Sequence record: PV467749.1
DNA: 64,000 nt
Strand: one strand, 5' to 3'
Source of the DNA: a phage
Position numbers and translations under genes: made by a program. Every line of letters starts with the position of its first letter. The first letter of the stretch is position 1. The notes below the pieces were generated by a model. That model saw only the letters and a list, made by a program, of their open reading frames with translations, did not search any database and had not been told where the DNA came from. This document shows, piece by piece, positions 1 through 64,000 of this stretch.

Positions 1-36
1 AACAAGAACAGGAATCCTTTTACGGATTCCTATAAT

Positions 37-330
37 TTAGTCCTTTAATGTACCATTGTGTAAACGATTATACACATCATTGCGACGCAATTCAACAATA
101 TCTTCAGCGTACTTCATTGTAAACGCCCATGCTTTTGGATGCACATTAAGCTTCATACGAATGCGATTCTTCATCAATTCACCGCTTAGGCGAACAAACT
201 CATGAACACCACGACTTCCGTACTCTGAAATCAAATCATTGATGTACATGTTGCGAAGGGTTTCGTCTGTACATTCTTTAACCATTTCTACGTCTGCCAC
301 GATGCTTGCATTTACTGAAGTACTGATCAT
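37..330 (-). CDS. hypothetical protein
   Basis: 97-aa ORF in co-directional minus-strand array; no recognisable motif. Confidence 0.45.
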   Translation of the reverse strand: MISTSVNASIVADVEMVKECTDETLRNMYINDLISEYGSRGVHEFVRLSGELMKNRIRMKLNVHPKAWAFTMKYAEDIVELRRNDVYNRLHNGTLKD

Positions 331-341
331 TTTAAGTTACC

Positions 342-608
342 TTATTTGAATTGGACTGTAATTTTATCACCTTCAACTACGAACTTACAGTCGTAGCGAC
401 GGGCCATATCCATATACATATGCTCAGAATACCACGGAACATCAATAACTGGATGCTCTGCGTATTGTAGCACTTCACGGTCACCAACAGTAGTGATGAC
501 GAAAGGAATGTTCATCTCTCGCAAAAACAACTCAGCACCTGGTGAACGATTGACAAACTCAGTGTCGTTACGCAAAGTAAAACCATTGTATTGTAATTTA
601 AGCTTCAT
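342..608 (-). CDS. hypothetical protein
   Basis: 88-aa ORF, tightly spaced after upstream gene. Confidence 0.45.
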   Translation of the reverse strand: MKLKLQYNGFTLRNDTEFVNRSPGAELFLREMNIPFVITTVGDREVLQYAEHPVIDVPWYSEHMYMDMARRYDCKFVVEGDKITVQFK

Positions 609-622
609 GATTATCCTCTAAG

Positions 623-979
623 TTAATACCATTCTTTTAAACCATCAAGTTCGGCTATGTGAGTAATTATAACACAGATAACACTCAGGTCAAGCATTAT
701 TTGCTCATAATTTAATTTTATTCTATCATCATTGTATGCTCGAAAAACAACATCAAAGTCAAAGTAGTTATCGTTTTCATCATTCATTGGAATGATTCTA
801 TATCTACGTCTACCATCATCATTGAATACAGTCAAACACTGTTTGAATTTCTTCATTAACTGTGTAGTCAATGCATTGTAATATGCAACATCATATTGTG
901 TACAACGTGGGTCATTGGGTAGATAAAACGATACAAATTTTTTTAATTCTATTTGAGTCTTATCCATATACAGCCTCAT
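623..979 (-). CDS. hypothetical protein
   Basis: 118-aa ORF. Confidence 0.45.
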   Translation of the reverse strand: MRLYMDKTQIELKKFVSFYLPNDPRCTQYDVAYYNALTTQLMKKFKQCLTVFNDDGRRRYRIIPMNDENDNYFDFDVVFRAYNDDRIKLNYEQIMLDLSVICVIITHIAELDGLKEWY

Positions 980-1400
980 GTATTACTCTTTTACTTTGGC
1001 GGTACTCATCCTTTGCTTCTCTCACTGACATGATACGAACCAGATTGGCACTACCACAATAGTACTGAACCTGACTACGACCAATGTCAACATGATTATC
1101 AGGAACTTCATATACTGATACAGCAAACCCTGCACGATGTAATTTACCCAAGTCCATAGTAAAGAACTTAAACAAATCATTCAAACTCTGACAGCCAAAT
1201 GCCCAGCCACGTTTGATTGAATAGATTCCATCTTCAGTTGGTTCTGGTTGGAATTGCGAAGGCGTGGTCATGCACAAACGGTCAAATCCATTTTTAGTAC
1301 TGTATCGTGAAGAGTACCGTGCGAACGGACCTACTGTTTTTGCTGGATCTAAGTTAGGTTCAATATAACTGAATTTAAGTTCAAAACGATATACGTACAT
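960..1400 (-). CDS. hypothetical protein
   Basis: 146-aa ORF. Confidence 0.5.
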   Translation of the reverse strand: MYVYRFELKFSYIEPNLDPAKTVGPFARYSSRYSTKNGFDRLCMTTPSQFQPEPTEDGIYSIKRGWAFGCQSLNDLFKFFTMDLGKLHRAGFAVSVYEVPDNHVDIGRSQVQYYCGSANLVRIMSVREAKDEYRQSKRVIHEAVYG

Positions 1401-1433
1401 AATTAAAATCCCCAGTATTTGATGAAATAATTA

Positions 1434-2836: not shown

Positions 2837-3163
2837 TTACTTCTTACTAGTTAGTTTATCTTTCAAGATATCAAACCAAATGGAAACTTTACCAGCAAAC
2901 AATGCATTAGTAAACCACACAATACCAACAATATTCTCAACTAAATTCATAATTGAAACAAATGGTCCAATTGGTAATACAAAACTTACTAACCATGACA
3001 GTACTGAAATAAGTACTACAACGAAGAAGATTCGTGCAATGGGTGAGTCTAACATAAACAACTCACGAAACTCATCACGCTCGGTTTCGTCTTTAATGAA
3101 GAATTCGAAAACCATAACCCATAAAAGAATTAGAGCAGGAATTGAAATTAGAACTGATAACAT
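2837..3163 (-). CDS. membrane protein
   Basis: 108 aa with several hydrophobic helices. Confidence 0.45.
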   Translation of the reverse strand: MLSVLISIPALILLWVMVFEFFIKDETERDEFRELFMLDSPIARIFFVVVLISVLSWLVSFVLPIGPFVSIMNLVENIVGIVWFTNALFAGKVSIWFDILKDKLTSKK

Positions 3164-3221
3164 GTTTTATATCCTCAAGTTTAAGTATTAAGTTTCAGAC
3201 TACAAGAACCATTATACAGTA

Positions 3222-3464
3222 CTACAAACGTTTGTCAACAGGTTTTTCTTCAATAAGCATAAGATAACTGAAGACGAATAGTAATACAGATGCCATATCA
3301 ATAACCGTAAAGCTCACGGGAATGATAATAGACACTAGAACGAGTGCCACGTTTAGCAAGAATACAGTAGTGATATCCACCAGCTTTCGTTTAGTGGCTA
3401 CTGCTACTAGTGTAGGGTAGAACATAAACAATAATGCAACTACAAAACTCAATACTAGATACAT
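3222..3464 (-). CDS. small membrane protein
   Basis: 80 aa, two hydrophobic helices. Confidence 0.45.
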   Translation of the reverse strand: MYLVLSFVVALLFMFYPTLVAVATKRKLVDITTVFLLNVALVLVSIIIPVSFTVIDMASVLLFVFSYLMLIEEKPVDKRL

Positions 3465-4117
3465 TTCTTTTTCACCTTAAGAAAATTATAACATAAAACA
3501 ACCTCAACATCTGGCTCATCATACAAGTACTCAAAGCGTTCTTTACTACGCTTAGTACCGATGTACTCACCATTCTTATGCCAACGCCACCCACCACTCT
3601 CTGGTTGGTCAGACTTCAGTACTGGATGATAGCACATGACAATTTCTTCTGGACCTTCAATAAGGTTCTTGTACTTCGTCAAAATCTGTTCAAGCGTATC
3701 TGCTACACCATAAGACGGGTGCATAAGATAAGACTCAGGGCGTGGACGACCACTTGGTAGAATGTCATCAGTACTATTAAAGATAGCACGGAAGTCTTCT
3801 GACGTGTATAAACTTCCATCTTCATGGATCATTGGATACTCATCTACTACATCATAATCAGTGAAGTGTTCAATCGCATGTCCTGGTCTGTAACCTGCGA
3901 GGATACCTGTATGTTTCGTCTGTACAATAGTCATAACAGATGTACTATTGTTTACATTAGGATCATGAATTTCAGCCCAAAAAGGATGATGAGGATCAAA
4001 TTTAGCATTAACTAAAGTACAATCACCAATGTAGTCGAAATTAGTTTCTTTAAAGTTCAAAGAAACACCACGCAATGCCCAATCAGGAGAAGTGATGAAA
4101 TTAAGATTAACTAACAT
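3455..4117 (-). CDS. hypothetical protein
   Basis: 220-aa ORF. Confidence 0.55.
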   Translation of the reverse strand: MLVNLNFITSPDWALRGVSLNFKETNFDYIGDCTLVNAKFDPHHPFWAEIHDPNVNNSTSVMTIVQTKHTGILAGYRPGHAIEHFTDYDVVDEYPMIHEDGSLYTSEDFRAIFNSTDDILPSGRPRPESYLMHPSYGVADTLEQILTKYKNLIEGPEEIVMCYHPVLKSDQPESGGWRWHKNGEYIGTKRSKERFEYLYDEPDVEVVLCYNFLKVKKKCI

Positions 4118-4150
4118 AGTATCCTCAGTTGCAGTTGTTTTTTGATGTAG

Positions 4151-4474
4151 TTATTGTATCAAAGACGTGTCAATTTGTACAACATTTATTGTAACTATTT
4201 CGTACATATATTCAATTGCATTGAACTCTGCATACCACTCTACAATCTCACAAGCAGCATCAACTTGGGTTTTCGCATTAACACGTCTGGCATAGGTACT
4301 GCTCATTTTGAATCTACCATATTCATAGACATTGTAGACACCATGACACCACCACATCTTAGTCATTAATGCTAGGCCATACAGTGAATTGTAAGTCTTG
4401 GTATTCAAATTTACCAATATCATTCTTCTTACGGAATGATTCTTCAACCTGAATTTCTGCGTCGTACTGACCAT
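4151..4474 (-). CDS. hypothetical protein
   Basis: 107-aa ORF; overlaps upstream ORF 4359..4577, so true start may be internal Met near 4366. Confidence 0.4.
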   Translation of the reverse strand: MVSTTQKFRLKNHSVRRMILVNLNTKTYNSLYGLALMTKMWWCHGVYNVYEYGRFKMSSTYARRVNAKTQVDAACEIVEWYAEFNAIEYMYEIVTINVVQIDTSLIQ

Positions 4475-4577
4475 CGGCCTTTACTACGTACTTAAAATAT
4501 TCTACATGTGAAAAACGATACCCTTCTCCGTCTTGCTTGGATACTTGTACTGACCCTTCAACTAGATATAAATTCAT
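4359..4577 (-). CDS. hypothetical protein
   Basis: 72-aa ORF. Confidence 0.35.
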   Translation of the reverse strand: MNLYLVEGSVQVSKQDGEGYRFSHVEYFKYVVKADGQYDAEIQVEESFRKKNDIGKFEYQDLQFTVWPSIND

Positions 4578-4580
4578 TTG

Positions 4581-4802
4581 TCATTCTCCATCATATTCAG
4601 TGAGTATTACACTATGTACGGTTTCAATATAGCGTTGTGTTTTTGATGTGTTGTACTTAGTTACTTCATCAAACAATTTAAATAGTGCATGTGTTGGACT
4701 TAATGCACGAACAAATACATCAATCTTCTGTACTTCTTTCTTATAACCACGTACATTATTAAACTCAGATACATGCTCATACACAATGTAGTAACGATTC
4801 AT
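4581..4802 (-). CDS. hypothetical protein
   Basis: 73-aa ORF. Confidence 0.4.
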   Translation of the reverse strand: MNRYYIVYEHVSEFNNVRGYKKEVQKIDVFVRALSPTHALFKLFDEVTKYNTSKTQRYIETVHSVILTEYDGE

Positions 4803-5314
4803 ATATTAAGTAGTTCCATAAATTCATCGATCAAGGAAGTTCTAATGCACATAACAAATTCAAAATCAACATCGATAGTATCGAGTAGTTTGAACAACTT
4901 TGGTACATTTGGATCATTCAACTGGAAGTTATGAATCAAGCTCTGTTGAAACACACTTTCTTCAGTACTGTAATCAATAACAAAATATTCAGCTACACCT
5001 GGAGGTGAATAAACATCATATAATATCTGACGTTTATTGTGTGTTTCTGAACCAGGACAATATATAAGTTCTATTTCATATGAACCTGCCGAGGATCTAT
5101 CATAAAACACAATTTCAGTACTGATTATTTCACTACCATCACTTCGTTCATGAAAACATACATCGGCATATCGTTTGCCATTTGGCTTCAAAATCTCATG
5201 AGTTGTTTTACCATAACATTTATCAGTTTCAATGTGAATTTTGTCTTGATATTCAGAACGTCTTACATCATTTCCACGATTAAACAATAAGATCAACAAC
5301 TCATTAATATCCAT
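4799..5314 (-). CDS. FQxS-motif paralog family protein
   Basis: 171 aa; C-terminal STEESVFQQSLIHN matches family motif [DE][DE]x2FQxSx[VI]. Confidence 0.55.
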   Translation of the reverse strand: MDINELLILLFNRGNDVRRSEYQDKIHIETDKCYGKTTHEILKPNGKRYADVCFHERSDGSEIISTEIVFYDRSSAGSYEIELIYCPGSETHNKRQILYDVYSPPGVAEYFVIDYSTEESVFQQSLIHNFQLNDPNVPKLFKLLDTIDVDFEFVMCIRTSLIDEFMELLNI

Positions 5315-5571
5315 TATTTCGCCTCGATAACCTTAAGGTTAACAAAATCACCTTTTACTTTCATGCATTTGAATTCAGTGCGAGTTTCATCCCCACTATC
5401 GCGAGGCCAATGAGTAGCAGAGTAGCACTGGTCTGGTGTTTTATATACACCTTCACCAATAGTACGAGTGATTTCACCATTGGTGAGAACTACTGCGAGA
5501 TATAAAGTAAACATGATATTCGCCTTAGAATAATTTATTAATAATAATAGCACCCAACGCAAGAACTGCAA
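5314..5571 (-). CDS. small secreted protein
   Basis: 85 aa, hydrophobic N-terminus. Confidence 0.45.
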   Translation of the reverse strand: MQFLRWVLLLLINYSKANIMFTLYLAVVLTNGEITRTIGEGVYKTPDQCYSATHWPRDSGDETRTEFKCMKVKGDFVNLKVIEAK

Positions 5572-5667
5572 TAATTACAGATACCCACATTACTGCATTC
5601 ACTGTACCAGTTAGTTCTTTATCAAACTCCCTGCACTTCTTACGGTACTCTTCCCACTCTTTGTTAT

Positions 5668-5883
5668 TCACACTGCCGCTCCTAATAGGTCGGTAGCTTT
5701 CTTCAGTACTACGTCAATTGTTTCCAGTACTGCACCTTTGTGTTCAATTGATACAATATTATTATAAGTATCAAGGTCCAAGTACTCCATGTATTCAGTT
5801 TTGAATACACGAACATCAGTACTAGTGATTTTAATATCACAACCTTTATCCCAAATAACCTGCATCATTTCATTGGTAGTCAT
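5668..5883 (-). CDS. hypothetical protein
   Basis: 71-aa ORF. Confidence 0.4.
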   Translation of the reverse strand: MTTNEMMQVIWDKGCDIKITSTDVRVFKTEYMEYLDLDTYNNIVSIEHKGAVLETIDVVLKKATDLLGAAV

Positions 5884-6158
5884 TATTCAACCTTATCATA
5901 AACAAGTTTGTGTGTGCTTAGTACTTTGTTGAGATGTCCAGGGCATTCATATACATACAATCTCTCCTGACGTTTTTCCCAACCACCACAGATACGACCT
6001 GATTGTGTACATACCTCATACTCGTTAATAAAAGACTTACCTGTGAATGTACAATCCTGACGAACTAAGTCTTTTGCACTAAACCTGCCGTCATCATTAC
6101 ATGCTGTAAGAAACATTGTACAGAATACAAAGACAACTGTCAATAGTTTTTTAATCAT
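5883..6158 (-). CDS. putative lipoprotein
   Basis: Signal peptide ending in lipobox-like LTAC. Confidence 0.5.
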   Translation of the reverse strand: MIKKLLTVVFVFCTMFLTACNDDGRFSAKDLVRQDCTFTGKSFINEYEVCTQSGRICGGWEKRQERLYVYECPGHLNKVLSTHKLVYDKVE

Positions 6159-6523
6159 TGAACATCACCCCAACGGAAACCTTTCATATAATTCAAATTC
6201 ACCTCAACGAGTTCATGTGTTTTTGTGCACCAAATGGAGAGAGTTTTTGTAACATCACCAGGTTCAGATTCATAATTCACACAATAACCTTCAATGCGTA
6301 GAGTTTTGTTAGTCCAATGTTCCCACTCAATCCAAATTTCATTTGGATAATAAACCATATCTTCTTTGAACGTATGGAATTGATCCATTGGTAAATGACC
6401 TTTAACTTCAATTACTTCAGCACTTCGAGCCAGTTTTTCAAGCTTGTACTTTATTTCAGCAAGATATTCTTCATCATTCAGACGAGTTAATAAATCTGTT
6501 GCACGGGTTGTATCAAGGCTCAT
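6155..6523 (-). CDS. hypothetical protein
   Basis: 122-aa ORF. Confidence 0.5.
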   Translation of the reverse strand: MSLDTTRATDLLTRLNDEEYLAEIKYKLEKLARSAEVIEVKGHLPMDQFHTFKEDMVYYPNEIWIEWEHWTNKTLRIEGYCVNYESEPGDVTKTLSIWCTKTHELVEVNLNYMKGFRWGDVQ

Positions 6524-6771
6524 TGTTGTACTCCATTAATCACTGAAGTATTGATTCGTGTTTTACCGCTGCTGTATCCAGTACTGGTATTTGCATTAGG
6601 GCAATAAACTGTATACAAGGTTACACCAGCACCGTCCTTTTGCATACGATAAATCTTACATCCTGCTTCTTGTAATTCAATAGGGAGAATAAAATCACTT
6701 GTGCGTTCTTTTGTTGAAGCGTCACATGCAGTGAGTAAAAATGCAACGAGTACTGCTACGATATATTTCAT
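6520..6771 (-). CDS. putative lipoprotein
   Basis: MKYIVAVLVAFLLTAC signal peptide with lipobox. Confidence 0.5.
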   Translation of the reverse strand: MKYIVAVLVAFLLTACDASTKERTSDFILPIELQEAGCKIYRMQKDGAGVTLYTVYCPNANTSTGYSSGKTRINTSVINGVQQ

Positions 6772-7079
6772 TAACGAACCTCCACTTCTTGAGAAAGAGC
6801 ATGAGTCAGTGCATTTGAATTCGAACTATTCATTTCACGCTGACATACAAACATAATGGCATCTTGTACTGAACCTGCGATTTCATACTCACGACCTTCT
6901 GGATCAGTTACCAGATGTTCAACGATACAACCACCACGCAGTACAGAAGCACCAGTACTTACACTAATCCTGTAACCTAAAAAATCAAACTGCATACATG
7001 CGTCAGTAGGTTTCATCCAATAACCGCTGTTTTGATTCAAATCGATGATTACAAAACCTTGAGTGTTAGTTTGAAACAT
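6771..7079 (-). CDS. hypothetical protein
   Basis: 102-aa ORF. Confidence 0.5.
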   Translation of the reverse strand: MFQTNTQGFVIIDLNQNSGYWMKPTDACMQFDFLGYRISVSTGASVLRGGCIVEHLVTDPEGREYEIAGSVQDAIMFVCQREMNSSNSNALTHALSQEVEVR

Positions 7080-7172
7080 AGTTAATTCCTCATTTAATTT
7101 AAAAGGGTGGAAACGCAGTGACGAGTACGATTATGCTGTCTTTCCTTTCACTGCATTCCCTTTGATATAAAC

Positions 7173-7200
7173 ATTATACAGTACTGATATCTTATGTCAA
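7173..7200 (-). promoter_or_regulatory. sigma-70-like promoter (TTGACA-16-TATAAT)
   Basis: Minus strand reads TTGACA TAAGATATCAGTACTG TATAAT; spacer ends with palindrome CAGTACTG. Confidence 0.6.
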
Positions 7201-7296
7201 GTATTAATCACCAAAAATCATCAGATACCCAAACCAACCCACACAGACGACTAAGCTAACAATACCAAAGACAATCTCTAAAGTCATGTTGCATCC

Positions 7297-7497
7297 TTAA
7301 TCAATGATTTTATATTCACGATGACCATAGAATCCAGCCTCAAGGATGCGATTACCATCAGCATCTTCCAAATCCCACCCACGGGATGTTTCGGCAATAA
7401 TAGTCATGATGTGACCTCTTGGGAAAATTCCACTCATGGTGGATACATCTTCAAGTAATTGAACCTTCTTACCAACATTTGTATTTGATTTAAACAT
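7297..7497 (-). CDS. hypothetical protein
   Basis: 66-aa ORF. Confidence 0.4.
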   Translation of the reverse strand: MFKSNTNVGKKVQLLEDVSTMSGIFPRGHIMTIIAETSRGWDLEDADGNRILEAGFYGHREYKIID

Positions 7498-7506
7498 ACT
7501 TTACCC

Positions 7507-7689
7507 TTATTCGTTGATTACGTCAAGTACTTTGTCCAGTTTCTTACCAATACTATCCTTTGGTTTCTCACCATTCTGGAATACATTAGTACTGCAATAC
7601 TCAGGACGGGTATTAGGGAACTTCTCGTTCATCCAGGAGTGACCATATACACCAAGAATGATACCTACGATAAGAATGATGATTTGCAT
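7507..7689 (-). CDS. small membrane protein
   Basis: 60 aa with N-terminal hydrophobic helix. Confidence 0.4.
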   Translation of the reverse strand: MQIIILIVGIILGVYGHSWMNEKFPNTRPEYCSTNVFQNGEKPKDSIGKKLDKVLDVINE

Positions 7690-7703
7690 GATATATCCTC
7701 TAA

Positions 7704-8588
7704 TTAAATTACATATGGTTTATAGTAATGAATCTCGTTTGATATTGCAGCGAAGACTTTGTTATTAAATCTTTCACCATAATCACGAAGAGATTCACCT
7801 TCTTCGCTTTCAATAAAGTAATTATATACTGGTAGACGTGCGGTGTCAACACCTATAAATGATTTCATGTAAATTTGTACTAAACGATTCATTCCTTCAT
7901 TTAAGCATTGCACCTCAAAGTGCTTGATACCTTTGTCTAAATGTTTGAATGCATTAATGATACCACGTTTAAAATCACGCTGCATAGTACTGAATAGATT
8001 CTCAGGGAACACTGTAATAGGTGACATTGATTTAAGAATGTATGTATCTTTAGCATTCTTAATATACTCAATGAAGCAGTAGTTAACGTCAGGCTCGATA
8101 GAACGATCAGCGTTATGATACCAGTACTTAAACTCACTGTACTCAGCAAACTTATGCTGGCGTAATGCGTTACAATCCTCACACAGTGCAGTCATGTTCT
8201 CTTTATCATTGCCACCCTGGAGACAGTCCAGTACATTATGGTCTAACGTCATGCGTACAAGGCGTTTACCTTTAAGTACATAAGGTCTGAATTTATAACG
8301 GTCTTTAGTACTGTGCTTATGTAAAGTGAATACCACATTGGATTCACCACAACAATCACATTTAAAGCCATCGCGTGACATTACATGAATGAGTTTTCGA
8401 GTATTTGGGCCGAACTCAGATTTAGTAATGTTGCCAACAATTTCTGATGGGTCGTAGTATTTTGAATTCCGGCGAATCAATTCATCTATAGTGCTCATTT
8501 TATATTTCTCCAGCAAGACACTCAAAAGTGACTTTTTTAACTTCGATAACTCGTACCAAATAGTATCCATGAAAGAAATTAAAACCAA
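7704..8588 (-). CDS. HNH endonuclease (probable homing endonuclease)
   Basis: Cys cluster CDCCGESN and LDHNVLDCLQGGNDKENMTALCEDCN, HNH-type motif; true start may be internal Met. Confidence 0.6.
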   Translation of the reverse strand: MVLISFMDTIWYELSKLKKSLLSVLLEKYKMSTIDELIRRNSKYYDPSEIVGNITKSEFGPNTRKLIHVMSRDGFKCDCCGESNVVFTLHKHSTKDRYKFRPYVLKGKRLVRMTLDHNVLDCLQGGNDKENMTALCEDCNALRQHKFAEYSEFKYWYHNADRSIEPDVNYCFIEYIKNAKDTYILKSMSPITVFPENLFSTMQRDFKRGIINAFKHLDKGIKHFEVQCLNEGMNRLVQIYMKSFIGVDTARLPVYNYFIESEEGESLRDYGERFNNKVFAAISNEIHYYKPYVI

Positions 8589-8727
8589 TCATTTGTGATA
8601 ATGCATCTGCTTCAGATTTTGCACGGATACATGATAGATATAGTTCTCGTATATCGCCATCCAACGATGCTTGTTTCTCGTCATTGATAACAATAGAACG
8701 AATCTCAAAACGAACACCATAACTCAT
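8500..8727 (-). CDS. hypothetical protein
   Basis: 75-aa ORF overlapping HNH gene 5' end. Confidence 0.3.
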   Translation of the reverse strand: MSYGVRFEIRSIVINDEKQASLDGDIRELYLSCIRAKSEADALSQMIGFNFFHGYYLVRVIEVKKVTFECLAGEI

Positions 8728-8933: not shown

Positions 8934-8997
8934 TAGATATTCCTCGATGGTTAATCATCCATCTCTTCGAGATGTCTGTTCGCTTCTAATACTACGT

Positions 8998-9559: not shown

Positions 9560-9586
9560 TAAAAAAAGGCTGACCGAAGTCAACCC
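9560..9586 (-). terminator. rho-independent terminator
   Basis: Same GGTTGAC-TTCG-GTCAGCC hairpin plus T7 run immediately after sigma-factor stop. Confidence 0.65.
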
Positions 9587-55556: not shown

Positions 55557-55582
55557 GTTTTATTTCCTTGTATATTAGGTGT

Positions 55583-55852
55583 TTATGAAATCCAATCTGC
55601 ATAATCATACAACAATGCAGTGAATAAGTCTTCTGTCATTTCAAGTTGATTAAACAAAAAATTAAATGAGTTTGCTTTGTTCTTCACACCCATTGCTTCG
55701 GCCTGGGCTGATACGATAAGTAAGTACTTAAACATATCATGAGAAACTTCATATACGTACTTCGTGTTAGTTCTATCTTCAAACATAAATCGTCCATTTT
55801 TAGAAACTAACGTAACGTCAGAAAAACTATATTTTCCATCATCAGTTATCAT
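55583..55852 (-). CDS. hypothetical protein
   Basis: 89-aa ORF. Confidence 0.4.
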   Translation of the reverse strand: MITDDGKYSFSDVTLVSKNGRFMFEDRTNTKYVYEVSHDMFKYLLIVSAQAEAMGVKNKANSFNFLFNQLEMTEDLFTALLYDYADWIS

Positions 55853-55908
55853 GTATTTTCATCCAAATAAAAAGCCCAGATAATATATCCGAGCTTTAGA
55901 TTTATGTT

Positions 55909-56235
55909 TTAACGACCAAATGTTTGAGCAGAGATGCGTGGATCATTGTCAGATACCAAACTTACTGCTGCTGGATAATCCACGAGATTCATTTTAATAC
56001 CATCAATCTCAATAGTTCTCGACCAACGACCGTGGTCAATTAGAATCCATTGTCCTTCTTTGATATCGGTAATGTCTTCACCAACAGAATATACTTTAGC
56101 CCAACGACAACGAATACCACGTATCTTACCATCATCACTTGTCAGTACAATACCACCTGCGGTTTTACGCTCACCATGTTCTAGTTCAGTTACAATAACT
56201 TTACCTTTACAAGCTGTCATTACTTTATTGGTCAT
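55909..56235 (-). CDS. GroES-like co-chaperonin (Cpn10 family)
   Basis: KVIVTELEHGERKTAGGIVLT matches GroES signature around TAGGIVL. Confidence 0.7.
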   Translation of the reverse strand: MTNKVMTACKGKVIVTELEHGERKTAGGIVLTSDDGKIRGIRCRWAKVYSVGEDITDIKEGQWILIDHGRWSRTIEIDGIKMNLVDYPAAVSLVSDNDPRISAQTFGR

Positions 56236-56238
56236 GAA

Positions 56239-56583
56239 TTACTCCTGATCTTTAGTTTTTGCTCGGCGTGGAGCTTTCTTCTCTTCAGATACTTCAACTT
56301 CTGGTTCTTGTGGTTGAACTTCAAAGCTTTCATCATCCCATACTTCTTCAGTACTATATTCAGCACTGTGAAGTTGGTGTTCAGGAATGAAATCAGGAAT
56401 TTGCATTTCACGTTCTTTTTCTTGGATTAGTTCTTCACGGGTTTTAATGACCGTACCACCTGAACCAATCTTATCACCACGAGCATTTAGGTTTGCATTA
56501 CCTAGTGCTACTTGGTGCTGGTTTTGATACTTTAGCATATCCATATCAATGGTGGTTCCACGATAAGTTGTGTGTTTTGACAT
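56239..56583 (-). CDS. hypothetical protein
   Basis: 114-aa ORF with acidic tail. Confidence 0.45.
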   Translation of the reverse strand: MSKHTTYRGTTIDMDMLKYQNQHQVALGNANLNARGDKIGSGGTVIKTREELIQEKEREMQIPDFIPEHQLHSAEYSTEEVWDDESFEVQPQEPEVEVSEEKKAPRRAKTKDQE

Positions 56584-56646
56584 ATAAAAATCCTTTTTCT
56601 ATGTGAGTGATATAACGCCTCAAACAACATTATATCACATGTTTTT

Positions 56647-57165
56647 CTACCATTTCAAAAATTCATTTACATCTAGTTTATACTTCAAAGAATCAACCAT
56701 ATGCAAATCAATCAGGAACAAACAATACGAAGCCACTGAACTACCACGCCCAAGACCCCAAAAAATATTGTGCTCTTCCATATAATCAACTAACCAGATC
56801 ATACATCTTAAAAGCTTAGTCATGTTGTAATGTTCAAACAAATCAATCTCATACATTACACGTTCACGGGCTTCATCCGATGTACATTTCTGTAAAAAGT
56901 ACTCACGCAAGTTGATGTTATCGTACACTGGATCATAACGCCATAGCTCATGGTTTTTATCATGTTCTATTGTATAATCCAGCATACGCTGTTCTAAACC
57001 AAATTTTTTACAATTATCGTTAAATTTCAATCGTTCCGGTTCATCAATCTCCTGTAGCTGTAAGTACTGAATATCTGCACCACAGTTGATTGCATACACG
57101 ACTGCATTAAGGTTACATTTTACATCACCATTGGGACTTATAAATCTGTTTCCTTGTACTTTCAT
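56647..57165 (-). CDS. hypothetical protein with DnaE-like segment
   Basis: LLRCMIWLVDYMEEHNIFWGLGRGSSVASYCLFLIDLHMVDSLKYKLDVNEFL parallels Pol III alpha YFLIVWDFI...[25 protein letters not shown]...FERFL. Confidence 0.45.
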   Translation of the reverse strand: MKVQGNRFISPNGDVKCNLNAVVYAINCGADIQYLQLQEIDEPERLKFNDNCKKFGLEQRMLDYTIEHDKNHELWRYDPVYDNINLREYFLQKCTSDEARERVMYEIDLFEHYNMTKLLRCMIWLVDYMEEHNIFWGLGRGSSVASYCLFLIDLHMVDSLKYKLDVNEFLKW

Positions 57166-57436
57166 TTTTCTTCTTCTGATCCTCTTCGTTATCCGTTAAG
57201 TAAGAGTTCATGTCAAATATACATGGGTCTTGCTCATCATAGGAGGTTTTTTCTTTTTGTCCCTGACGAATCTCTAATTCAGCATAGCACTGATTCAGAA
57301 CGGTTTGCATGTTACCAACAATCATATCACTCATACCTGCTGCACGAGCAGACGTAATACGCATCGATTGTTCGTTAATTTTCAATTGTAACTCTTTCTC
57401 GGTCATGGTTGATGGATCAAAAAATGGATTGAACAT
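57125..57436 (-). CDS. hypothetical protein
   Basis: 103-aa ORF. Confidence 0.4.
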   Translation of the reverse strand: MFNPFFDPSTMTEKELQLKINEQSMRITSARAAGMSDMIVGNMQTVLNQCYAELEIRQGQKEKTSYDEQDPCIFDMNSYLTDNEEDQKKKNESTRKQIYKSQW

Positions 57437-57437
57437 A

Positions 57438-59861
57438 TCATCCTCCTAAATTGCTGTTTTGTAATGAAATCAAAAATGTATCATGAACGTAGTTTTCGAA
57501 TTCATGTGCAAAGAATCCAAACTCAACTCCTGTGATTTCAAACTCAACACCAACCATCTTACCATGTTCATTGTTCTGAAGTAAAGTGTTAAAGAATGCT
57601 TCACCCTTTCCTGGTGCACAATATGCAACTGGAATGATTGGCATAAATTTCTTTTCAACTCCATTTTCTTCGTATGGGTGATTCATGAAGCGAGGAACAG
57701 TGTCAAGCATCTCATCAGAAATTCCTGGTATAGCATCTACATACAAACCACGGTTTTGTAAATCAGTTGGGTCTTTCACAAGGTTAGTTGTGTCTTCGCC
57801 AATTGCTGCAAAAATATTTTGACGCAAGCCAAATATTTCACCGAGTGTTCCGTTATCAATTTGCGTGTAACTTCTTGGATTCTTAGAAACCGACACCAAT
57901 GAACCTGCGGGTAAAACTTCACGGTATAATATATCATACTGCAAGTTACCTTGGTTGTCAAGTGCTGACATTACTTTATAGTTGCCCATTACCATTCTAA
58001 ATTTTCCATCAGGTATAGTTGCACCAGATTGGTTTATGATATTTTCCCTAAGTACTTTTTTAATATCACTCAACGTAGTGTAAGTATAGTTCTGACTCAA
58101 AAAGTTTTCTTTTAATAGAATACGTGGTACTTTTTGTAACCCGTATCTATCATCTGATTGACGATGGAAAGCTTGTTTTGTAAATGATGGTGTACTAATA
58201 CACTTAAACCATTCACGTTCAAAATAAACAGAAGGTACAATATGTGCACTTAAGTAGTTTTGTCCAAAACCACGTACAATTTTCAGTTTAAATAACTTGG
58301 ACGCAACACCACCTTCAGTGTCATATGCTTTGATGTTGAATTCTAATTTTATATCATCATTTGCACTGAAATCTAAACTTTTTGCATATGCCGTCCCGAC
58401 CAAGAACCCATCTGCGGTGAGGTCCAAACCATATTTGCGAATATCATCAGGCCCACCATCTAATACATAAGATACCTGATTAGTACTGGTAGTTTGTATT
58501 TGTGGATAAGTACTGTGACCGAAATATTCACCCACATGAATACTACCTAAATCACTATCAGTTGTGAAGTCTATTGAGTTTCCTTCTTCTGCGTTCACTA
58601 GAACACGGAACATCTTCTCTTCACCTATAATATTCTCACCTAAGCTTGAATCATAATATCCTAAATCAATCCAATCTGAACTTTTAAACACTGGCTTTGT
58701 TTCACCTAGATCATATTCACCAGAGATTACATATGGATATACAACGTTATCTTTCAACTGATACAAATGATTAGGTAAAGGTTTATCACCATCAGCGTAT
58801 ATACCATCTACATTGTCTGGACATACCCACATTTGATATGCTTTGAAACGTTGGTTTATAGCGAAGCGGTCAGTGTCATAACTATATGTACTCAAAATAT
58901 CAACAATTTCAACTTTGAAATATGCATCACATGCATCAGAGTCATATAGGAATGTTTGCAGAAATTGTCCATTTGGGTTGAAAACCAATCCTGAATCTAG
59001 TAACTCCCCAGAGCTAGTTTGAATATTAACCTTAATTTCTTTATTAATACCAAATACAGGCCATATATTATCAATAGGACGTAGGATTGCATAATCATCA
59101 GTAATGTGGCGAGCAGGAACTTCTGCTGGGGTCATATCGAGTAGACGATACGCTGGATAAAATACTCTAGGAGATAGGTCAGTTGATGTATCCGTTCCTA
59201 AAATAAATGGACGACGACGACCAAATCCCTGTACAAATAAAGTACTGTTGGAACCGTATTCAATATCACCAATACAATATAATTTGTCATCATCACCGAT
59301 TTCGATTCCAGGAGTAACCCACACTTCCTGACTATCATATTCAATTGTTACTTCATTTGAACCAATTTCACCACTAGGGGAAATGTTACCATAGTACATA
59401 ACATTTACTGCTTGAAGATAGAAGTTAATCTGTTCAGAGTTGTTAAATGTACCATCATCTTTACAATGCAATTTAATAAAATAAACATCTTCGGTATTAG
59501 TGCTTGCCGATAGATCAAATTGAGTTTTATCAATTTTACATTTGTGCTTACCATTAATCAACTTGTTACCAGTAATACCTGATGATATAGGTGTGAGATT
59601 AGATTCATCATTACCAACATACACTGCGTAGTGATCTTCTGGTTGAAATACTGCATCAGAACTATCCAAACCCTGAATAGTTAGAATCATCTCTAAGTAT
59701 TCGTTTTCATTAAGTATATAACTATCATCCGTTGTGGTTTCTTTGTTGATACTCAAACGCACAAGAATGTCTTGTCCTTCTTGTATATATCGAGCATCGG
59801 CTTTTATATCCCATCTAGGGGTAAAAGTTGTCATTATAATTCTCCATAGCCAAGCTACCAT
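57438..59861 (-). CDS. large hypothetical protein (possibly virion structural)
   Basis: 807-aa ORF; no ATPase or nuclease motifs seen; likely start at Met10. Confidence 0.55.
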   Translation of the reverse strand: MVAWLWRIIMTTFTPRWDIKADARYIQEGQDILVRLSINKETTTDDSYILNENEYLEMILTIQGLDSSDAVFQPEDHYAVYVGNDESNLTPISSGITGNKLINGKHKCKIDKTQFDLSASTNTEDVYFIKLHCKDDGTFNNSEQINFYLQAVNVMYYGNISPSGEIGSNEVTIEYDSQEVWVTPGIEIGDDDKLYCIGDIEYGSNSTLFVQGFGRRRPFILGTDTSTDLSPRVFYPAYRLLDMTPAEVPARHITDDYAILRPIDNIWPVFGINKEIKVNIQTSSGELLDSGLVFNPNGQFLQTFLYDSDACDAYFKVEIVDILSTYSYDTDRFAINQRFKAYQMWVCPDNVDGIYADGDKPLPNHLYQLKDNVVYPYVISGEYDLGETKPVFKSSDWIDLGYYDSSLGENIIGEEKMFRVLVNAEEGNSIDFTTDSDLGSIHVGEYFGHSTYPQIQTTSTNQVSYVLDGGPDDIRKYGLDLTADGFLVGTAYAKSLDFSANDDIKLEFNIKAYDTEGGVASKLFKLKIVRGFGQNYLSAHIVPSVYFEREWFKCISTPSFTKQAFHRQSDDRYGLQKVPRILLKENFLSQNYTYTTLSDIKKVLRENIINQSGATIPDGKFRMVMGNYKVMSALDNQGNLQYDILYREVLPAGSLVSVSKNPRSYTQIDNGTLGEIFGLRQNIFAAIGEDTTNLVKDPTDLQNRGLYVDAIPGISDEMLDTVPRFMNHPYEENGVEKKFMPIIPVAYCAPGKGEAFFNTLLQNNEHGKMVGVEFEITGVEFGFFAHEFENYVHDTFLISLQNSNLGG

Positions 59862-59874
59862 TATCTATAGATTA

Positions 59875-59912
59875 TTTATATAAAGGACAAGGAAGACCCA
59901 TAAAGGTCTTCC
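59875..59912 (-). terminator. rho-independent terminator
   Basis: Hairpin GGAAGACC-TTTATG-GGTCTTCC then T-rich tract after gp52 stop. Confidence 0.5.
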
Positions 59913-59922
59913 CTGTTTATAA

Positions 59923-61335
59923 TCAATCTTCAGTTTTTGGCGTGAAGTCAATCTTACGTAGTTCTTTCAACTCATCTTTATAGATGTTCCAAATCAAATC
60001 ATGATTCGACAGGAGATTGTTATATTCATCCATTAAATCCAAGTTATGTTGAATATCAGCTAGTACTGATTGATAATTGTCTTGGGTCCAACGATATGAT
60101 GGGAAGTTTACGATGCTTTGAATATTCTCATCGGTTGCTTCGATTTCAGTGTTTAATGATTTAACAAACTCAACCATTTCTGAACGGTTAGCAAAACCCT
60201 TAACCTTAGCAATCATATCATTATCAAAACATTCTTTGATTAGAATCTTATAACGTACTTCAGCAGCACAATCATCAAGTTTCTTCTCATAGCGTTTCAC
60301 ATAGTATTTGAAACGGAATTCAACAAAGTCCTTAATCAAATCCATTGTGTTATCATAGACTTTAACCTTACCATTCTCACCTAGAACAGTTAGGATTTGT
60401 GTCATCTTCTTATGAATGCCAAAGTATTCAATTACATCTTTCTCCACCCATTTAGCAGATGTTCCGCGTGGCAATTTGATTGTAATATCAATAACATCAG
60501 TACTATCATTATCATAATCACGAATATCACCATCATCGCTCATCTTAATGAGTTTCTCGATGAATTTCTCAATACTGTAGTTAGGTGGTAGACCTGTTAC
60601 TTTAACAGTACTGGCATCAATTACTTGTGCTTTACCATAGAACTCATATTTGTTTTCATCAAGCTTAGTTACGATATCACTTGCACCACATGAAACATAG
60701 TATGGAGTCATTTCTTTTAATGGTTTTTTATCAATAGCACGAATACAGTTATCAATAACATCTTCAATCTTATGTGGTAGAATTGTACTCTTATAACCTA
60801 CTGACATACTATCGTTACCAAACAAAGATAGTGGGATAATAGGTAAAAAGAAACTTGGTTCCATTGTAGTACCATCATAGTTCTCTTTCATTGGAATAAT
60901 GTCAGAGTCACGCAGTACTAACATTTCAGTACTTTTATTCTTTTTAACATAAGTATAACGAGCAGAAGCTGGAGTACTGTTTACTTGTGTACCAAAACCA
61001 CCACGTTTACCAATGAGTGGGTAGTTGTTTACGACTGGTGATGCTAGGTTCTGAAGAGTACCAGATGCAGATGCATCACCGTGTAGATAGATACCATCAC
61101 TAATCATTTTACCAGCACATGATACAGTTTTGATTTCACCACTAACTTTTGAGAGGGTGAAGATTGCTTTACGCTGTGAACTCTTAAGGCCATCAATCCC
61201 AGGGATTGCACGGTCTAGTGTGTACATTGAATATTCTAGTGATGTGGTATTCACATAATCAGAACTGTTATAATCTAGTAGAGTTAGTGTTTGGTTATCG
61301 ATGCTTTGATTTTCGGTTTTTTTACTTTTAGCCAT
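59923..61335 (-). CDS. 52: DNA topoisomerase II medium subunit (T4 gp52-like)
   Basis: YSMYTLDRAIPGIDGLKSSQRK matches T4 gp52 AYAMYTVENRAIPNMIDGFKPVQR; KVKVYDNTMDLIKDFVEFR matches KLQVYDNVVDLIKDFVEVR. Confidence 0.85.
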   Translation of the reverse strand: MAKSKKTENQSIDNQTLTLLDYNSSDYVNTTSLEYSMYTLDRAIPGIDGLKSSQRKAIFTLSKVSGEIKTVSCAGKMISDGIYLHGDASASGTLQNLASPVVNNYPLIGKRGGFGTQVNSTPASARYTYVKKNKSTEMLVLRDSDIIPMKENYDGTTMEPSFFLPIIPLSLFGNDSMSVGYKSTILPHKIEDVIDNCIRAIDKKPLKEMTPYYVSCGASDIVTKLDENKYEFYGKAQVIDASTVKVTGLPPNYSIEKFIEKLIKMSDDGDIRDYDNDSTDVIDITIKLPRGTSAKWVEKDVIEYFGIHKKMTQILTVLGENGKVKVYDNTMDLIKDFVEFRFKYYVKRYEKKLDDCAAEVRYKILIKECFDNDMIAKVKGFANRSEMVEFVKSLNTEIEATDENIQSIVNFPSYRWTQDNYQSVLADIQHNLDLMDEYNNLLSNHDLIWNIYKDELKELRKIDFTPKTED

Positions 61336-61385
61336 TCCATTGTCTCTTTGTAAAAGGGGAACACCATGTTCCCCATTAATCTATA

Positions 61386-63350
61386 TTATTCCATCCAGTT
61401 CTTACGATCATCAGCACGTTTCTTGTTGAAAATCAAATCAAGAGTTTCACCAAGGCGACCATCATCTGTAATCGCTACTGCAACACTGTTAGTGAATGCA
61501 TCACGGAAGTTTGCTTTTTCTAACGTACCCAATCCTTTCGCACGGGTTGCTTTCCAACCTTTCCAATCATCTGGGTTGTATTCATGTACATCATGACCAT
61601 AGTAGTACTTGGATTCCTTACCTTTCTCTAGAATGATGAATGGTGTTTTGAATATATACACAAATGGATTCTCTGGGTCTTGGAATAGTTCAGGCCAGAA
61701 TTTGTATAGGAAGTTACATACTAAAGCACCAATGTTCTTTCCATCCTCATCTTCATCGGCACAGATATAAAGCTTACCATAGTTAAGGTCTGCTCTTTCC
61801 GCTTTTACACCAGGAATCAGGTTGATACTCGCCATTATATCATGCAATGCCATTGAATCCATTAATTCTTTGGTTTTCTCATTACCACTGACGTTCATAA
61901 TTTTACCACGCAATGGTAGAATACCATGAACTTTAGGATCACGAGCACTCGCCATGTTGGAAATAGCAGAATCACCCTCAGCAATTAGTAGGATGCATTT
62001 GGAACGATCCGTGCCTGTACTGTCCAGTAGTTTTGCAACTTTACCTTTCAGTAGTTTTTTAGCTAGACGGCGATCTTCTTCTGCATCTTTCTTGTTGGTA
62101 CGAGCAGCACAGCGTTCAAAAATTTCATCAATCCACTCTTTGTTCTTCTTGACTAATTCATCGAACCATTCAGAATTCATCGCTTGTTGAATTGGACGAA
62201 TAACGTTTTCGTTGGTTAGTTTTGATTTAATCTGTGAGTTGAATGATGGTGCTTTCATCGTTGTTACGTTATAAATCAACAGACCTTCTTCAATATCAGA
62301 GCGGTTAGGTTTCATCTTGCGTTTCTTTGATTCTTTCTCTAGAGCAGTTCCTACTCCTAATGAGAAGAATTTCTTGAATGTATCAAGATGTGTACCACCA
62401 TCAAATGCTGGGGCATTGTTAACCAAACCATGCATATGGAAGTTAGTGTTCATACCCGATACTGCATTAGGAACAATGTAGAAAGTACTGTTAAAGTTGA
62501 ATGATTCATCTTTAACGTTCAATTGCATCAGTTTAGATGCGTTGAATAGTGCTTTTTCAGTAGTTCCTTTAATTGCAATACGCTTACCGTTAAGGAAAAT
62601 CTTATAGGTAGGGTTAGCAGCAGACATTTCTTTCAAAATACTGTATAACAATTCGGTTGGCAGTTTACGGTTAGGAAATACCTCAGAACTCAGAGTGAAG
62701 CGAATTGTTGTTCCAGTCTTATCTGCTTGAACCTTACGAATAGTTGGTTCATGTACATGAAGTTCAGGAAACATAATAGTTCCTTCTTCGAACTTCTGAT
62801 TGAACTTATAAAAACCGTCATATCCGTCATTGCTACTTTGTGTTTTATACGGGCGACCTTGGCGATGGATTTCAAGTTCAGCTTTAGAACTTACAATCAT
62901 TGCAACTGAACCACCCAATCCATTCTGACCGATTGTTTCATCACGCTTCGAGTCATCAAAGTTGCGACCAGTTTTAGTTTCAGTCATTACCATTGTACAT
63001 AGATTTTTCTGATACTCAGGAACATAGTCAATTGGAATACCACGACCATTATCACTGATCTCAAAGGATAACTCTTCTTCATTGAAATCAACTTTGAGTA
63101 CTGGTTCTTTTGTGCCAGCTTTTTTAAATTCATCTAAGCTGTTATCGATAATTTCACGAGTAGCAGTTAGAATTGCAGGAACCCACTCAACGTTTTTAAC
63201 TTCATATCCAGACTCACCAAAGATCAGTACTTGACTTTCGTGAACAGAACGTGAACCCAGATACATCTCAGTACGTAAGCGAGCATGTTGATAATCGTTT
63301 AGACGTTGTACATCATGTTCCTGAAGAACAGCACTTTCTTTCTTAGCCAT
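61386..63350 (-). CDS. 39: DNA topoisomerase II large subunit (T4 gp39-like, with gp60-like C-terminal region)
   Basis: ATPase motifs EIIDNSLDE, DNGRGIP; toprim LLIAEGDSA; C-terminal DEDEDG...PELF...KGLGTLEK...DDRKNWM resembles T4 gp60. Confidence 0.85.
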   Translation of the reverse strand: MAKKESAVLQEHDVQRLNDYQHARLRTEMYLGSRSVHESQVLIFGESGYEVKNVEWVPAILTATREIIDNSLDEFKKAGTKEPVLKVDFNEEELSFEISDNGRGIPIDYVPEYQKNLCTMVMTETKTGRNFDDSKRDETIGQNGLGGSVAMIVSSKAELEIHRQGRPYKTQSSNDGYDGFYKFNQKFEEGTIMFPELHVHEPTIRKVQADKTGTTIRFTLSSEVFPNRKLPTELLYSILKEMSAANPTYKIFLNGKRIAIKGTTEKALFNASKLMQLNVKDESFNFNSTFYIVPNAVSGMNTNFHMHGLVNNAPAFDGGTHLDTFKKFFSLGVGTALEKESKKRKMKPNRSDIEEGLLIYNVTTMKAPSFNSQIKSKLTNENVIRPIQQAMNSEWFDELVKKNKEWIDEIFERCAARTNKKDAEEDRRLAKKLLKGKVAKLLDSTGTDRSKCILLIAEGDSAISNMASARDPKVHGILPLRGKIMNVSGNEKTKELMDSMALHDIMASINLIPGVKAERADLNYGKLYICADEDEDGKNIGALVCNFLYKFWPELFQDPENPFVYIFKTPFIILEKGKESKYYYGHDVHEYNPDDWKGWKATRAKGLGTLEKANFRDAFTNSVAVAITDDGRLGETLDLIFNKKRADDRKNWME

Positions 63351-63412
63351 TTGAATTCCTTTTTAATGTCTCTTTGTCATGCAACATTGTATCATCAATG
63401 CTTTGTTTGTCT

Positions 63413-63443
63413 CAAAAAAATATCGGGACATTAAATGCCCCGA
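63413..63443 (-). terminator. rho-independent terminator
   Basis: Hairpin TCGGGGCAT-TTA-ATGTCCCGA followed by T7 run on minus strand. Confidence 0.55.
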
Positions 63444-63449
63444 CAATTA

Positions 63450-63998
63450 TTATTTTACCAGAAGTAATTGTAATTCAGCACTAGGACTAAATTCATCATC
63501 ACTCCAGTACTTGTGAACCTTCTCTGGACTAGCCTTAGCCAATACTTCACCACCACCTACAATGTAGACTTGGTGTGAACCAATCAATCGGGTCCAGAAT
63601 TTAATTGCATCATCTGTGTGAAGACTGTCACTTAGTACTTTAATACCATGAGAAACCATATCCATAAAGATATTATAGATGATACCTTTAGTACCAGTTT
63701 TAGAGGCCGTAGCAGAAATCTCAAACACTTGTGGTACACCAACCACTGCATCATTCGACAAATGTCCACTAACGATAGCAAGCTGTTTACCCGCTTTATC
63801 ATAGGCAATAAACCCAGTACCATTCTTATTCATAAACACATCATAATCTTTGTGTTCTGCGAACTTAACCATGTTGTGCTTACCTGTCATCTCGGCAGTT
63901 TTGTCAACGAACTCGTCACGGTCTTGGCCTTGGAAACTATCGAAACGTTGTGGCATTTCTTCCAATTTCTCTTTATGGTCTTCTTCACATGAATCCAT
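63450..63998 (-). CDS. hypothetical protein (possibly 5'-truncated by window edge)
   Basis: 182-aa ORF reaching the window end. Confidence 0.45.
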   Translation of the reverse strand: MDSCEEDHKEKLEEMPQRFDSFQGQDRDEFVDKTAEMTGKHNMVKFAEHKDYDVFMNKNGTGFIAYDKAGKQLAIVSGHLSNDAVVGVPQVFEISATASKTGTKGIIYNIFMDMVSHGIKVLSDSLHTDDAIKFWTRLIGSHQVYIVGGGEVLAKASPEKVHKYWSDDEFSPSAELQLLLVK

Positions 63999-64000
63999 TA

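Follow-up and report, generated by a model that had tools for sequence, protein, structure and literature searches.

AGTACT, a highly iterated palindrome of Rak2-like jumbo phages with recurring positions in early promoters

The closest described counterparts of the DNA word analyzed here, the palindromic hexamer AGTACT, are the HIP1 element of cyanobacteria and the stoperators of cluster A mycobacteriophages. HIP1 (GCGATCGC) is a short perfect palindrome that is many-fold enriched throughout the genome, in coding and non-coding DNA, at about one copy per 0.3–1 kb. It is lineage-specific and is maintained even though single sites are exchangeable. Stoperators, the sites of the repressor gp71 in phage L5, are asymmetric 13-mers of temperate phages, present in approximately 25–35 copies per genome, mostly in short intergenic gaps and oriented with transcription. 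We found AGTACT to be iterated along a stretch of 64,000 nucleotides from a phage (sequence record PV467749.1, positions 1–64,000; "the window" hereafter). Megablast assigned the window to Asteriusvirus, Rak2-like jumbo myoviruses of Escherichia coli; its part from 44000 to 64000 shows 99.5% identity to fEgEco12, EC.P1, and WPEC5 and approximately 82% to PBECO4 and 121Q. The G+C content of the window is 33–37%. No description of an iterated AGTACT motif in Rak2-like phages was found in the literature searched.

AGTACT resembles HIP1 in each of the features listed above. It differs in being A+T-rich and in being carried by a phage instead of a cell. HIP1 contains the methylated words CGATCG and GATC, whereas no cognate methylation was detected in the motif-rich Erwinia phage Hallingskeid, and the phage motif bears no repair-drive signature and also stands at fixed positions inside promoters. 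With stoperators, AGTACT may share the use of one site both as an early-promoter operator and in dispersed copies. Unlike stoperators, it is a 6-bp palindrome with about 900 copies per genome (extrapolated), mostly located in genes and in every reading frame, in a virulent jumbo phage. A repressor candidate corresponding to the stoperator immunity repressor was not found with Pfam and PHROGs among the genes downstream of motif-bearing promoters. The pattern is thus HIP1-like and the logic would be stoperator-like, yet AGTACT lacks defining features of both, so that we regard it as a member of neither class. We would describe it best as a highly iterated palindrome, found in a clade of jumbo phages, that doubles as a positional element of early promoters.

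The enrichment is genuine and lies far outside what chance would give. The 64 kb contain 165 copies of AGTACT, about one per 388 bp, against a mean of 18.0 and a maximum of 30 in 100 dinucleotide-preserving shuffles; the octamer CAGTACTG occurs 39 times (mean 0.87 and maximum 4 in shuffles of the same kind). Markov models of orders 0, 1, 2, 3, and 4 predict 21.5, 17.5, 33.7, 62.5, and 131 copies of AGTACT, the order-3 and order-4 values being high because AGTAC, GTACT, and GTAC are themselves inflated by the motif. When synonymous codons were shuffled with the proteins and the codon usage kept, 32.8 ± 5.2 copies were expected in coding DNA, where 150 are observed. An over-representation had been proposed by a sequence-only reading of this DNA, and the exact k-mer counts bear it out against both shuffled and synonymously recoded sequences. 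The one-mismatch variants of AGTACT are mildly enriched (approximately 1.7–1.9-fold), those altering G2 or C5 0.9–1.3-fold.

An account without any function, in which codon usage, dipeptide usage, or base composition produces the excess as a side effect, could appeal to the order-4 Markov expectation of 131. However, this figure is circular because its 5-mers contain the motif, the synonymous-codon shuffle expects only 33 copies, the intergenic density is equal to the coding density, and all frames are used. The same word is also enriched in genomes of 32–44% G+C and in an unrelated lineage, and it stands at fixed promoter positions. We consider a functionless excess almost certainly wrong; the shuffle of synonymous codons, the test of reading frames, and the density in intergenic DNA rule out an artefact of codons or composition.

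Among the 64 palindromic hexamers, AGTACT alone is enriched in the window (9.4-fold), with GAATTC coming next at 1.9-fold. Other 6-bp palindromes are avoided: CCATGG (8.5 expected), CAGCTG (6.4), ACCGGT (5.2), CGATCG (4.1), and eight others have zero copies, many G+C-containing palindromic hexamers being absent from the window, and GATC occurs at about half its expectation (114 versus 216). This avoidance fits DNA exposed to host restriction, and it makes the excess of AGTACT more striking; AGTACT is itself a ScaI-type restriction target that is enriched instead of avoided. Separately, GTGTACCA occurs ten times on the plus strand (1.06 expected) and three times on the minus strand; as the other sampled phages show no such enrichment, its excess is probably a codon-level effect.

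AGTACT is maintained by selection at the DNA level. In the minus-strand genes the sites are distributed over the three reading frames as 62, 30, and 53. Fifteen of the 165 lie outside the called open reading frames (ORFs), which leave 8.6% of the window, and 150 lie inside genes; the motif therefore occurs in coding and intergenic sequence, as had been claimed, and does so at equal density. Codon choice bends around the word: AGT-ACT encodes 64 of the 113 Ser-Thr pairs, where 15.3 would be expected, GTA-CTN encodes 77 of the 163 Val-Leu pairs (expectation 33.1), and in xAG-Tyr-Txx contexts the ratio of TAC to TAT is 30:7, though TAC accounts for 34% of all Tyr codons. The dipeptides Ser-Thr and Val-Leu themselves are approximately 1.45-fold more frequent than amino-acid frequencies predict and are also commoner than Thr-Ser and Leu-Val. 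The phage tRNA-Ser(GCU) decodes AGU, the first codon of the in-frame motif AGT-ACT, a heavily used form.

The sites are also spaced more evenly than expected, with a coefficient of variation of 0.80 (P = 0.0025) and a variance-to-mean ratio of 0.44 in 2-kb bins (P = 0.003); of five other samples, two were significantly even on both measures. In the 30 nt upstream of start codons AGTACT is depleted (1 versus 9.3 expected, P = 0.001). Apart from this depletion the profile around start and stop codons is flat, with no enrichment at either. A location at gene ends, suggested earlier with two sites as examples, does not hold up as a rule: both sites exist at slightly shifted coordinates (a 12-mer at 20566–20577 and a 14-mer at 22929–22942), but given the flat profile they are chance cases, and a gene-end or terminator role was rejected.

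Both strands of the window were scanned for near-consensus sigma-70 promoters (TTGACA-N15-19-TATAAT). The scan returned 40 promoters, all on the minus strand and none on the plus strand, which is an unusually dense array of strong promoters of the host type. In five of the 40 (expectation 0.2; binomial P = 2e-6), AGTACT ends 1–2 nt before the -10 hexamer. The sequence-only reading had noticed the motif just upstream of the -10 element in three promoters, and this placement was confirmed for those at 7173–7200, 25702–25730, and 26124–26151 (all on the minus strand), to which we add two at 3211–3238 and 24943–24971. In the promoter at 7173–7200, upstream of a 102-residue ORF (6771–7079), CAGTACTG at 7179–7186 abuts TATAAT. 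The promoter at 25702–25730 (TTGACT-N17-TATAAT) holds TTCAGTACTG in its spacer at 25709–25716, and a near copy of it at 26124–26151 (TTGACT-N16-TATAAT) holds TTCAGTACTG at 26130–26137. In the minus-strand promoter TTGACA-N16-TATAAT at 3211–3238, AGTACT at 3218–3223 ends 1 nt before the -10 hexamer, upstream of a 108-residue ORF (2837–3163).

The fifth promoter, that of the tRNA-Ser(GCU) gene, contains two sites (24943–24976, minus strand, with the promoter proper at 24943–24971). One AGTACT at 24971–24976 overlaps the -35 element (AGTAC-TGGACA), and a second at 24951–24956 ends 2 nt before TATAAT, the two copies being exactly 20 bp apart. This dual-site layout matches that of the RaK2 early promoters. 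Another copy, at 26845–26850, abuts the 5' end of the tRNA-Ser(UGA) gene, 4 nt downstream of a TATAAT hexamer. The array further includes two near-identical promoter copies 78 bp apart (44291–44319 and 44369–44397).

Related early regions are considerably richer in such arrangements. Over an 11-kb stretch of RaK2 with a run of short ORFs, many promoters follow the pattern AGTAC-TTGACA-N9-AGTACT-G-TATAAT, and RaK2 tRNA genes are likewise preceded by AGTACT in the spacer position. When IMG/VR was scanned for pairs of CAGTACTG copies no more than 30 nt apart, the hits included sections of RaK2 as well as other Rak2-like contigs, with 6.5–7 sites per kb. The start-to-start spacing of AGTACT in the dense early loci peaks sharply at 20–21 bp (30 pairs). 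The early region of WPEC3, a phage 98% identical to that of the window, contains 6.1 AGTACT per kb; 14 of its 26 promoters carry the spacer copy (P = 1e-20) and five the copy overlapping the -35 element. We infer that two copies on the same helix face, over the -35 element and the edge of the -10 element in promoters that are otherwise nearly perfect, would form a classical repressor-operator layout. In the same AGTACT-richest early region of WPEC3 (PV611058, bases 3001–17000), CCWGG is approximately 4-fold over-represented (40 versus 10.3 expected).

The bases flanking AGTACT are also constrained. Among the 165 sites of the window, C precedes the hexamer (position -1) in 89 and G follows it (+1) in 70, while T at -2/-3 and A at +2/+3 are weakly favored. 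As a symmetric preference, C at -1 is 2.2–2.9-fold up, G at -1 is down to 0.2–0.6-fold, and T is favored at -3/-4, which suggests a footprint of approximately 12–14 bp. The robust unit is (C)AGTACT(G), with the core hexamer as the unit. The optimal form TTCAGTACTGAA is rare as a full 12-mer, with six copies in the window, and perfect palindromes of 12–18 bp are formed by seven of the 165 sites. These are the 12-bp palindromes TTCAGTACTGAA at 20566–20577 (at the 3' end of the ORF 20567–20851), 24340–24351, 41674–41685, and 42659–42670, the 14-bp palindromes ATTCAGTACTGAAT at 22929–22942 (intergenic) and TAACAGTACTGTTA at 44572–44585, and the 18-bp palindrome TTCTTCAGTACTGAAGAA at 27785–27802, inside the ORF 27758–28039. 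A terminator-like hairpin, ACCCAGT-ctagt-ACTGGGT followed by a T run (30235–30261, minus strand), was picked out by eye; the motif at 30247–30252 makes up its 3' arm.

Such extended palindromes raise the question of whether the signal acts in RNA, with CAGUACUG or longer hairpins built on it being recognized or processed in transcripts. With nearly every gene on a single strand, all sites are transcribed, and some RaK2 early 5' untranslated regions (UTRs) hold 20-bp palindromes GGGAAUC-AGUACU-GAUUCCC with 8-bp stems and a GUAC loop, whose hairpins reach -12.4 and -13.9 kcal/mol (z = -2.3 and -3.3). However, an RNA signal has no need of a palindrome, and most sites have no extended complementarity and would not fold, as only seven of 165 reach at least 12 bp; the 14-mer at 22929–22942 folds no better than shuffled sequences, and the promoter copies lie upstream of the transcription start. 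Recognition in RNA is very unlikely on these grounds.

The density of AGTACT is a property of the clade. The word is enriched 7.7–10.5-fold, at 1.8–2.7 copies per kb, in five related genera and in Erwinia phage Hallingskeid; Asterius-, Alcyoneus-, Mimas-, and Eneladusvirus are the genera named, and the enrichment extends over early, replication, and structural regions. We counted 122 copies in bases 1–50000 of CMSTMSU (MH494197), 114 per 50 kb in the replication and structural genes of RaK2, 64 per 30 kb in GAP32, 46 per 20 kb in Serratia phage BF, 52 per 20 kb in XbC2, and 40 per 15 kb in Hallingskeid. The G+C content of the sampled motif-rich phages is 32–39%. Among distant relatives no enrichment was found, with a depletion to 1 copy versus 8.8 expected in PA5oct, 0 versus 3.0 in XacN1, and 2 versus 1.9 in Atu_ph07. 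A 50-kb sample of E. coli K-12 contains three copies (0.06 per kb), approximately 40-fold below the 2.1–2.6 per kb of the phages.

We aligned the window from 44000 to 64000 with 121Q (81% identity) and Turkey5 (76% identity) to follow the turnover of sites. In 121Q 44% of the window sites are conserved versus 32% of all hexamers (P = 0.06), and in Turkey5 51% versus 26% (P = 2e-4). Only 15 of 83 site positions are common to all three genomes, while each holds 37–49 sites per approximately 20 kb. Individual sites are exchangeable, and density is the property that is maintained.

Two further observations concern these comparison genomes. PA5oct (MK797984, 100001–130000) shows a mild enrichment of CTGCAG (14 versus 2.7 expected) and TCTGCAGA (4 versus 0.26), which could reflect a weak alternate palindrome or a codon effect; 14 versus 2.7 in 30 kb is too weak to call CTGCAG an alternate palindrome. 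CMSTMSU (MH494197, 1–50000; a record marked UNVERIFIED) contains one CCWGG where 30 are expected and has fragmented genes, whereas the other Asteriusvirus samples are normal; sequencing errors at Dcm-methylated sites are the likely cause, not biology.

The IMG/VR scan also brought up a second, unrelated lineage. Many contigs of approximately 25–36 kb, with 35–44% G+C and 1.3–5.3 AGTACT per kb, encode a lambda-type terminase and portal, a tape measure protein, a J-like fibre, a lysozyme, and a large serine recombinase. This siphovirus-type family sits as prophages in Leclercia chromosomes, and megablast of a Leclercia-type prophage against phage records gave no match. The enrichment persists across members whose portal proteins are only 49% identical, and the flanks match those of the jumbo phages (C at -1 2.3–2.8-fold, G at -1 0.4-fold, T favored at -3/-4). 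No replication module was recognizable in the parts read. The left end of the prophage encodes a serine recombinase, an HNH endonuclease, and two unknown proteins, one of which (466 residues) has weak matches to proteins of T4-like phages, Atu_ph07, and SCTP-2 among the matches listed (phage records). In a local tblastn comparison with approximately 450 kb of Rak2-like DNA, no gene common to both lineages was found except lysozyme and HNH endonucleases. Two unrelated lineages that carry the motif without a shared binder gene point to a reader that is either a host factor or a factor outside the sampled DNA.

A host protein of Enterobacterales that reads the site and is recruited or titrated by the phages would account for the shared motif and flank preference in two unrelated lineages with no common binder gene found; in addition, the motif-negative relatives infect Pseudomonas, Xanthomonas citri, and Agrobacterium. 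We know of no host protein with an AGTACT site other than the candidate named here, SlmA. The site of SlmA, GTGAGTACTCAC, contains the AGTACT core (PMC3020112) and has the same dyad symmetry, and most of the motif-rich phages have a host range that includes bacteria with SlmA. In its 12-bp palindrome SlmA depends on G at positions 1 and 5, T at position 2, A at position 4, and a purine at position 3 (PMC3020112). The phage sites instead prefer C at position 3 (2.7-fold up, G 0.54-fold) and show no G at position 1, and GT.AGTACT.AC occurs 0 times in the window, which is thus devoid of a full match. SlmA sites were rejected, the phage flanks being incompatible with the published specificity. Also against a host reader, the motif-rich XbC2 is recorded as a Xanthomonas phage, and host range is confounded with phylogeny. 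A host reader is unlikely on balance.

The likeness to HIP1 also raises methylation: AGTACT might be the target of a methyltransferase, having multiplied through methylation-directed mismatch repair or serving the phage as an epigenetic self-mark. The genome-wide, lineage-specific pattern in coding and non-coding DNA speaks for it, and HIP1 abundance reportedly tracks cognate methyltransferases, a relation ascribed to work by Elhai in 2015. About 900 ScaI-type sites in a palindrome-avoiding genome would be safer if protected. These phages encode methyltransferases, including a C5 enzyme conserved in most motif-positive genera, and Sharanji has additional N6-adenine enzymes (PMC11895373). In the window, the C5 cytosine DNA methyltransferase (36933–38822, minus strand, 629 residues) is interrupted by an intein with a Hint domain and a LAGLIDADG homing endonuclease, whereas its ortholog RaK2 ORF194 (297 residues) is without intein. 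The best solved relatives of the enzyme are the catalytic domains of eukaryotic DNMT3A/3B, the match extending over the full length of these domains, and being DNMT3-like it is probably CpG-specific; RaK2 is reported to carry methylated CpG (PMC3622015). We rejected it as a likely cognate enzyme, as AGTACT has no CpG. A Mom-like modification (RaK2 ORF149) was also rejected, the known consensus of Mu Mom not fitting AGTACT.

Several observations weigh against methylation. In Hallingskeid, a related phage with 40 AGTACT per 15 kb, comparison of native with amplified DNA by nanopore sequencing found only GATC and CCWGG modified (PMC11780129), so that no modification at AGTACT is reported for this motif-rich genome. 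One-mismatch neighbors show no depletion, the deamination products AGTATT and AATACT among them, and where an orthologous site is not conserved, C>T and G>A are the single changes seen most often; a repair drive of the VSP type was rejected on these two observations. A neutral drive predicts neither even spacing nor fixed promoter positions, and in the siphovirus-type lineage a methyltransferase was seen in only two loci. A methyltransferase target therefore appears rather unlikely. The suggestion that the palindrome is the site of a modification or nicking enzyme is disfavored by the Hallingskeid data (PMC11780129), and modification or nicking at AGTACT in virion DNA is unlikely, judging from this relative.

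AGTACT could also be the preferred site of a phage enzyme, such as a T4-type topoisomerase II, a primase, or a nickase loading a sliding clamp for late transcription. The palindrome has a 4-bp center, and if cut as A^GTAC_T it would yield the 4-base stagger that type IIA enzymes produce; the even spacing of approximately 400 bp would suit a process needed everywhere on a 350-kb genome. The phages encode topoisomerase II subunits (present in the window), a clamp loader, and a primase. However, the motif-negative Atu_ph07 has a topoisomerase subunit as well, and XacN1 a primase/helicase. Known primases read trinucleotides, and none of these enzymes explains the fixed -35/-10 positions. Nick-type drops in strand coverage were reported for one other phage only, not for Hallingskeid (PMC11780129). 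Taken together, a phage enzyme is a quite unlikely reader. The nick-associated motif WACTRTGAC of T5, tf, and Rembedalsseter resembles AGTACT as a short word kept across a phage clade and located partly in genes, but it is asymmetric and strand-specific, with only approximately ten copies per genome (PMC11780129).

The reading that we prefer, tentatively and at somewhat less than even confidence, is that AGTACT is the site of a dimeric DNA-binding protein, which would act as a repressor at early promoters and read the whole genome via the dispersed copies. The sequence-only reading had inferred a dimeric binder from the palindrome alone; the site side of that proposal has gained a symmetric preference over approximately 12–14 bp and a fixed -10/-35 placement in many early promoters of RaK2 and of a 98%-identical relative, while the binder itself stays a postulated protein. 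A homodimeric, sequence-specific protein would recognize AGTACT, optimally in the context TTCAGTACTGAA, across the whole phage genome. Bound at the copy abutting the -10 element and at the -35 copy 20 bp upstream, it would occlude RNA polymerase and could thereby shut off the very strong early promoters. The remaining sites, about 900 per genome by extrapolation, would be held at approximately one per 400 bp in every gene. With an approximately 40-fold higher site density in phage than in host DNA, the protein would accumulate on the former, and it may serve there as a coat, as a self-mark, or as a roadblock distributed along the genome.

Several points weigh against this proposal. The placement beside the -10 element could partly be a matter of economy, with the trailing TG of AGTACTG providing the TG of an extended -10 element. 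In promoters with a 17-bp spacer (AGTACTGA-TATAAT and AGTACTGG-CATAAT) the motif does supply TG at -15/-14, whereas in those with a 16-bp spacer its TG is one position off; a role in the extended -10 element cannot explain the intragenic copies. The motif is absent from 35 of the 40 promoters in the window, and promoter-linked copies make up only five of the 165 sites. Six specified bases are little for a specific regulator, and about 900 intragenic sites, as simple roadblocks, would obstruct late genes like early ones. A candidate binder was not found among the genes downstream of motif-bearing promoters, for which Pfam and PHROGs gave only families of unknown function. The unrelated prophage lineage has the same motif, with no shared regulator gene in the sampled DNA.

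A broader version of the preferred repressor reading, which we consider doubtful, would see in AGTACT a sequence-based self-identity code. With approximately 2.5 sites per kb versus 0.06 in the host, a dedicated dimeric protein would coat or mark only phage DNA, shut early promoters, and direct genome-wide processes, and the code may have arisen or spread in small siphovirus prophages of Enterobacterales. A code in the sequence is invoked because ordinary, largely unmodified DNA would preclude marking by base modification in the manner of T4. Chi, KOPS, and DNA-uptake sequences are likewise over-represented words, at one per 1–5 kb, that let a protein tell DNAs apart; they are asymmetric and orientation-dependent, whereas AGTACT is its own reverse complement. 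A Chi-like role was rejected, as E. coli Chi (GCTGGTGG) is not enriched in the window.

As for the genes of the window, 121 of the 129 selected ORFs, i.e., nearly every gene, are on the minus strand. The sole large ORF on the plus strand (15334–16491, 385 residues) has no family match and may be a mobile insertion. On the minus strand we identified genes for tRNA-Thr(UGU) (22301–22372), tRNA-Asn(GUU) (24080–24153), tRNA-Ser(GCU) (24847–24936), and tRNA-Ser(UGA) (26755–26844), as well as an HNH endonuclease gene (7704–8588) with a match in PHROGs. A phage-encoded sigma-70-family factor of 321 residues, with regions 2 and 3 detected, is encoded at 9594–10559 (minus strand), and its gene adjoins an intergenic stretch with two AGTACT copies.

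Coliphages of the Rak2-like jumbo type are common and are candidates for use in phage therapy, and the function of most of their genes is not known. AGTACT offers an easy bait with which the protein could be pulled down, a collection of very strong natural promoters that are probably switchable, and a signature for spotting Rak2-like phages and the second prophage family in metagenomes. These phages also provide a tractable model for the long-unsolved role of highly iterated palindromes such as HIP1. A word that is held at about 900 places per genome (extrapolated), bending both codon and amino-acid choice, implies a major unrecognized protein-DNA system.

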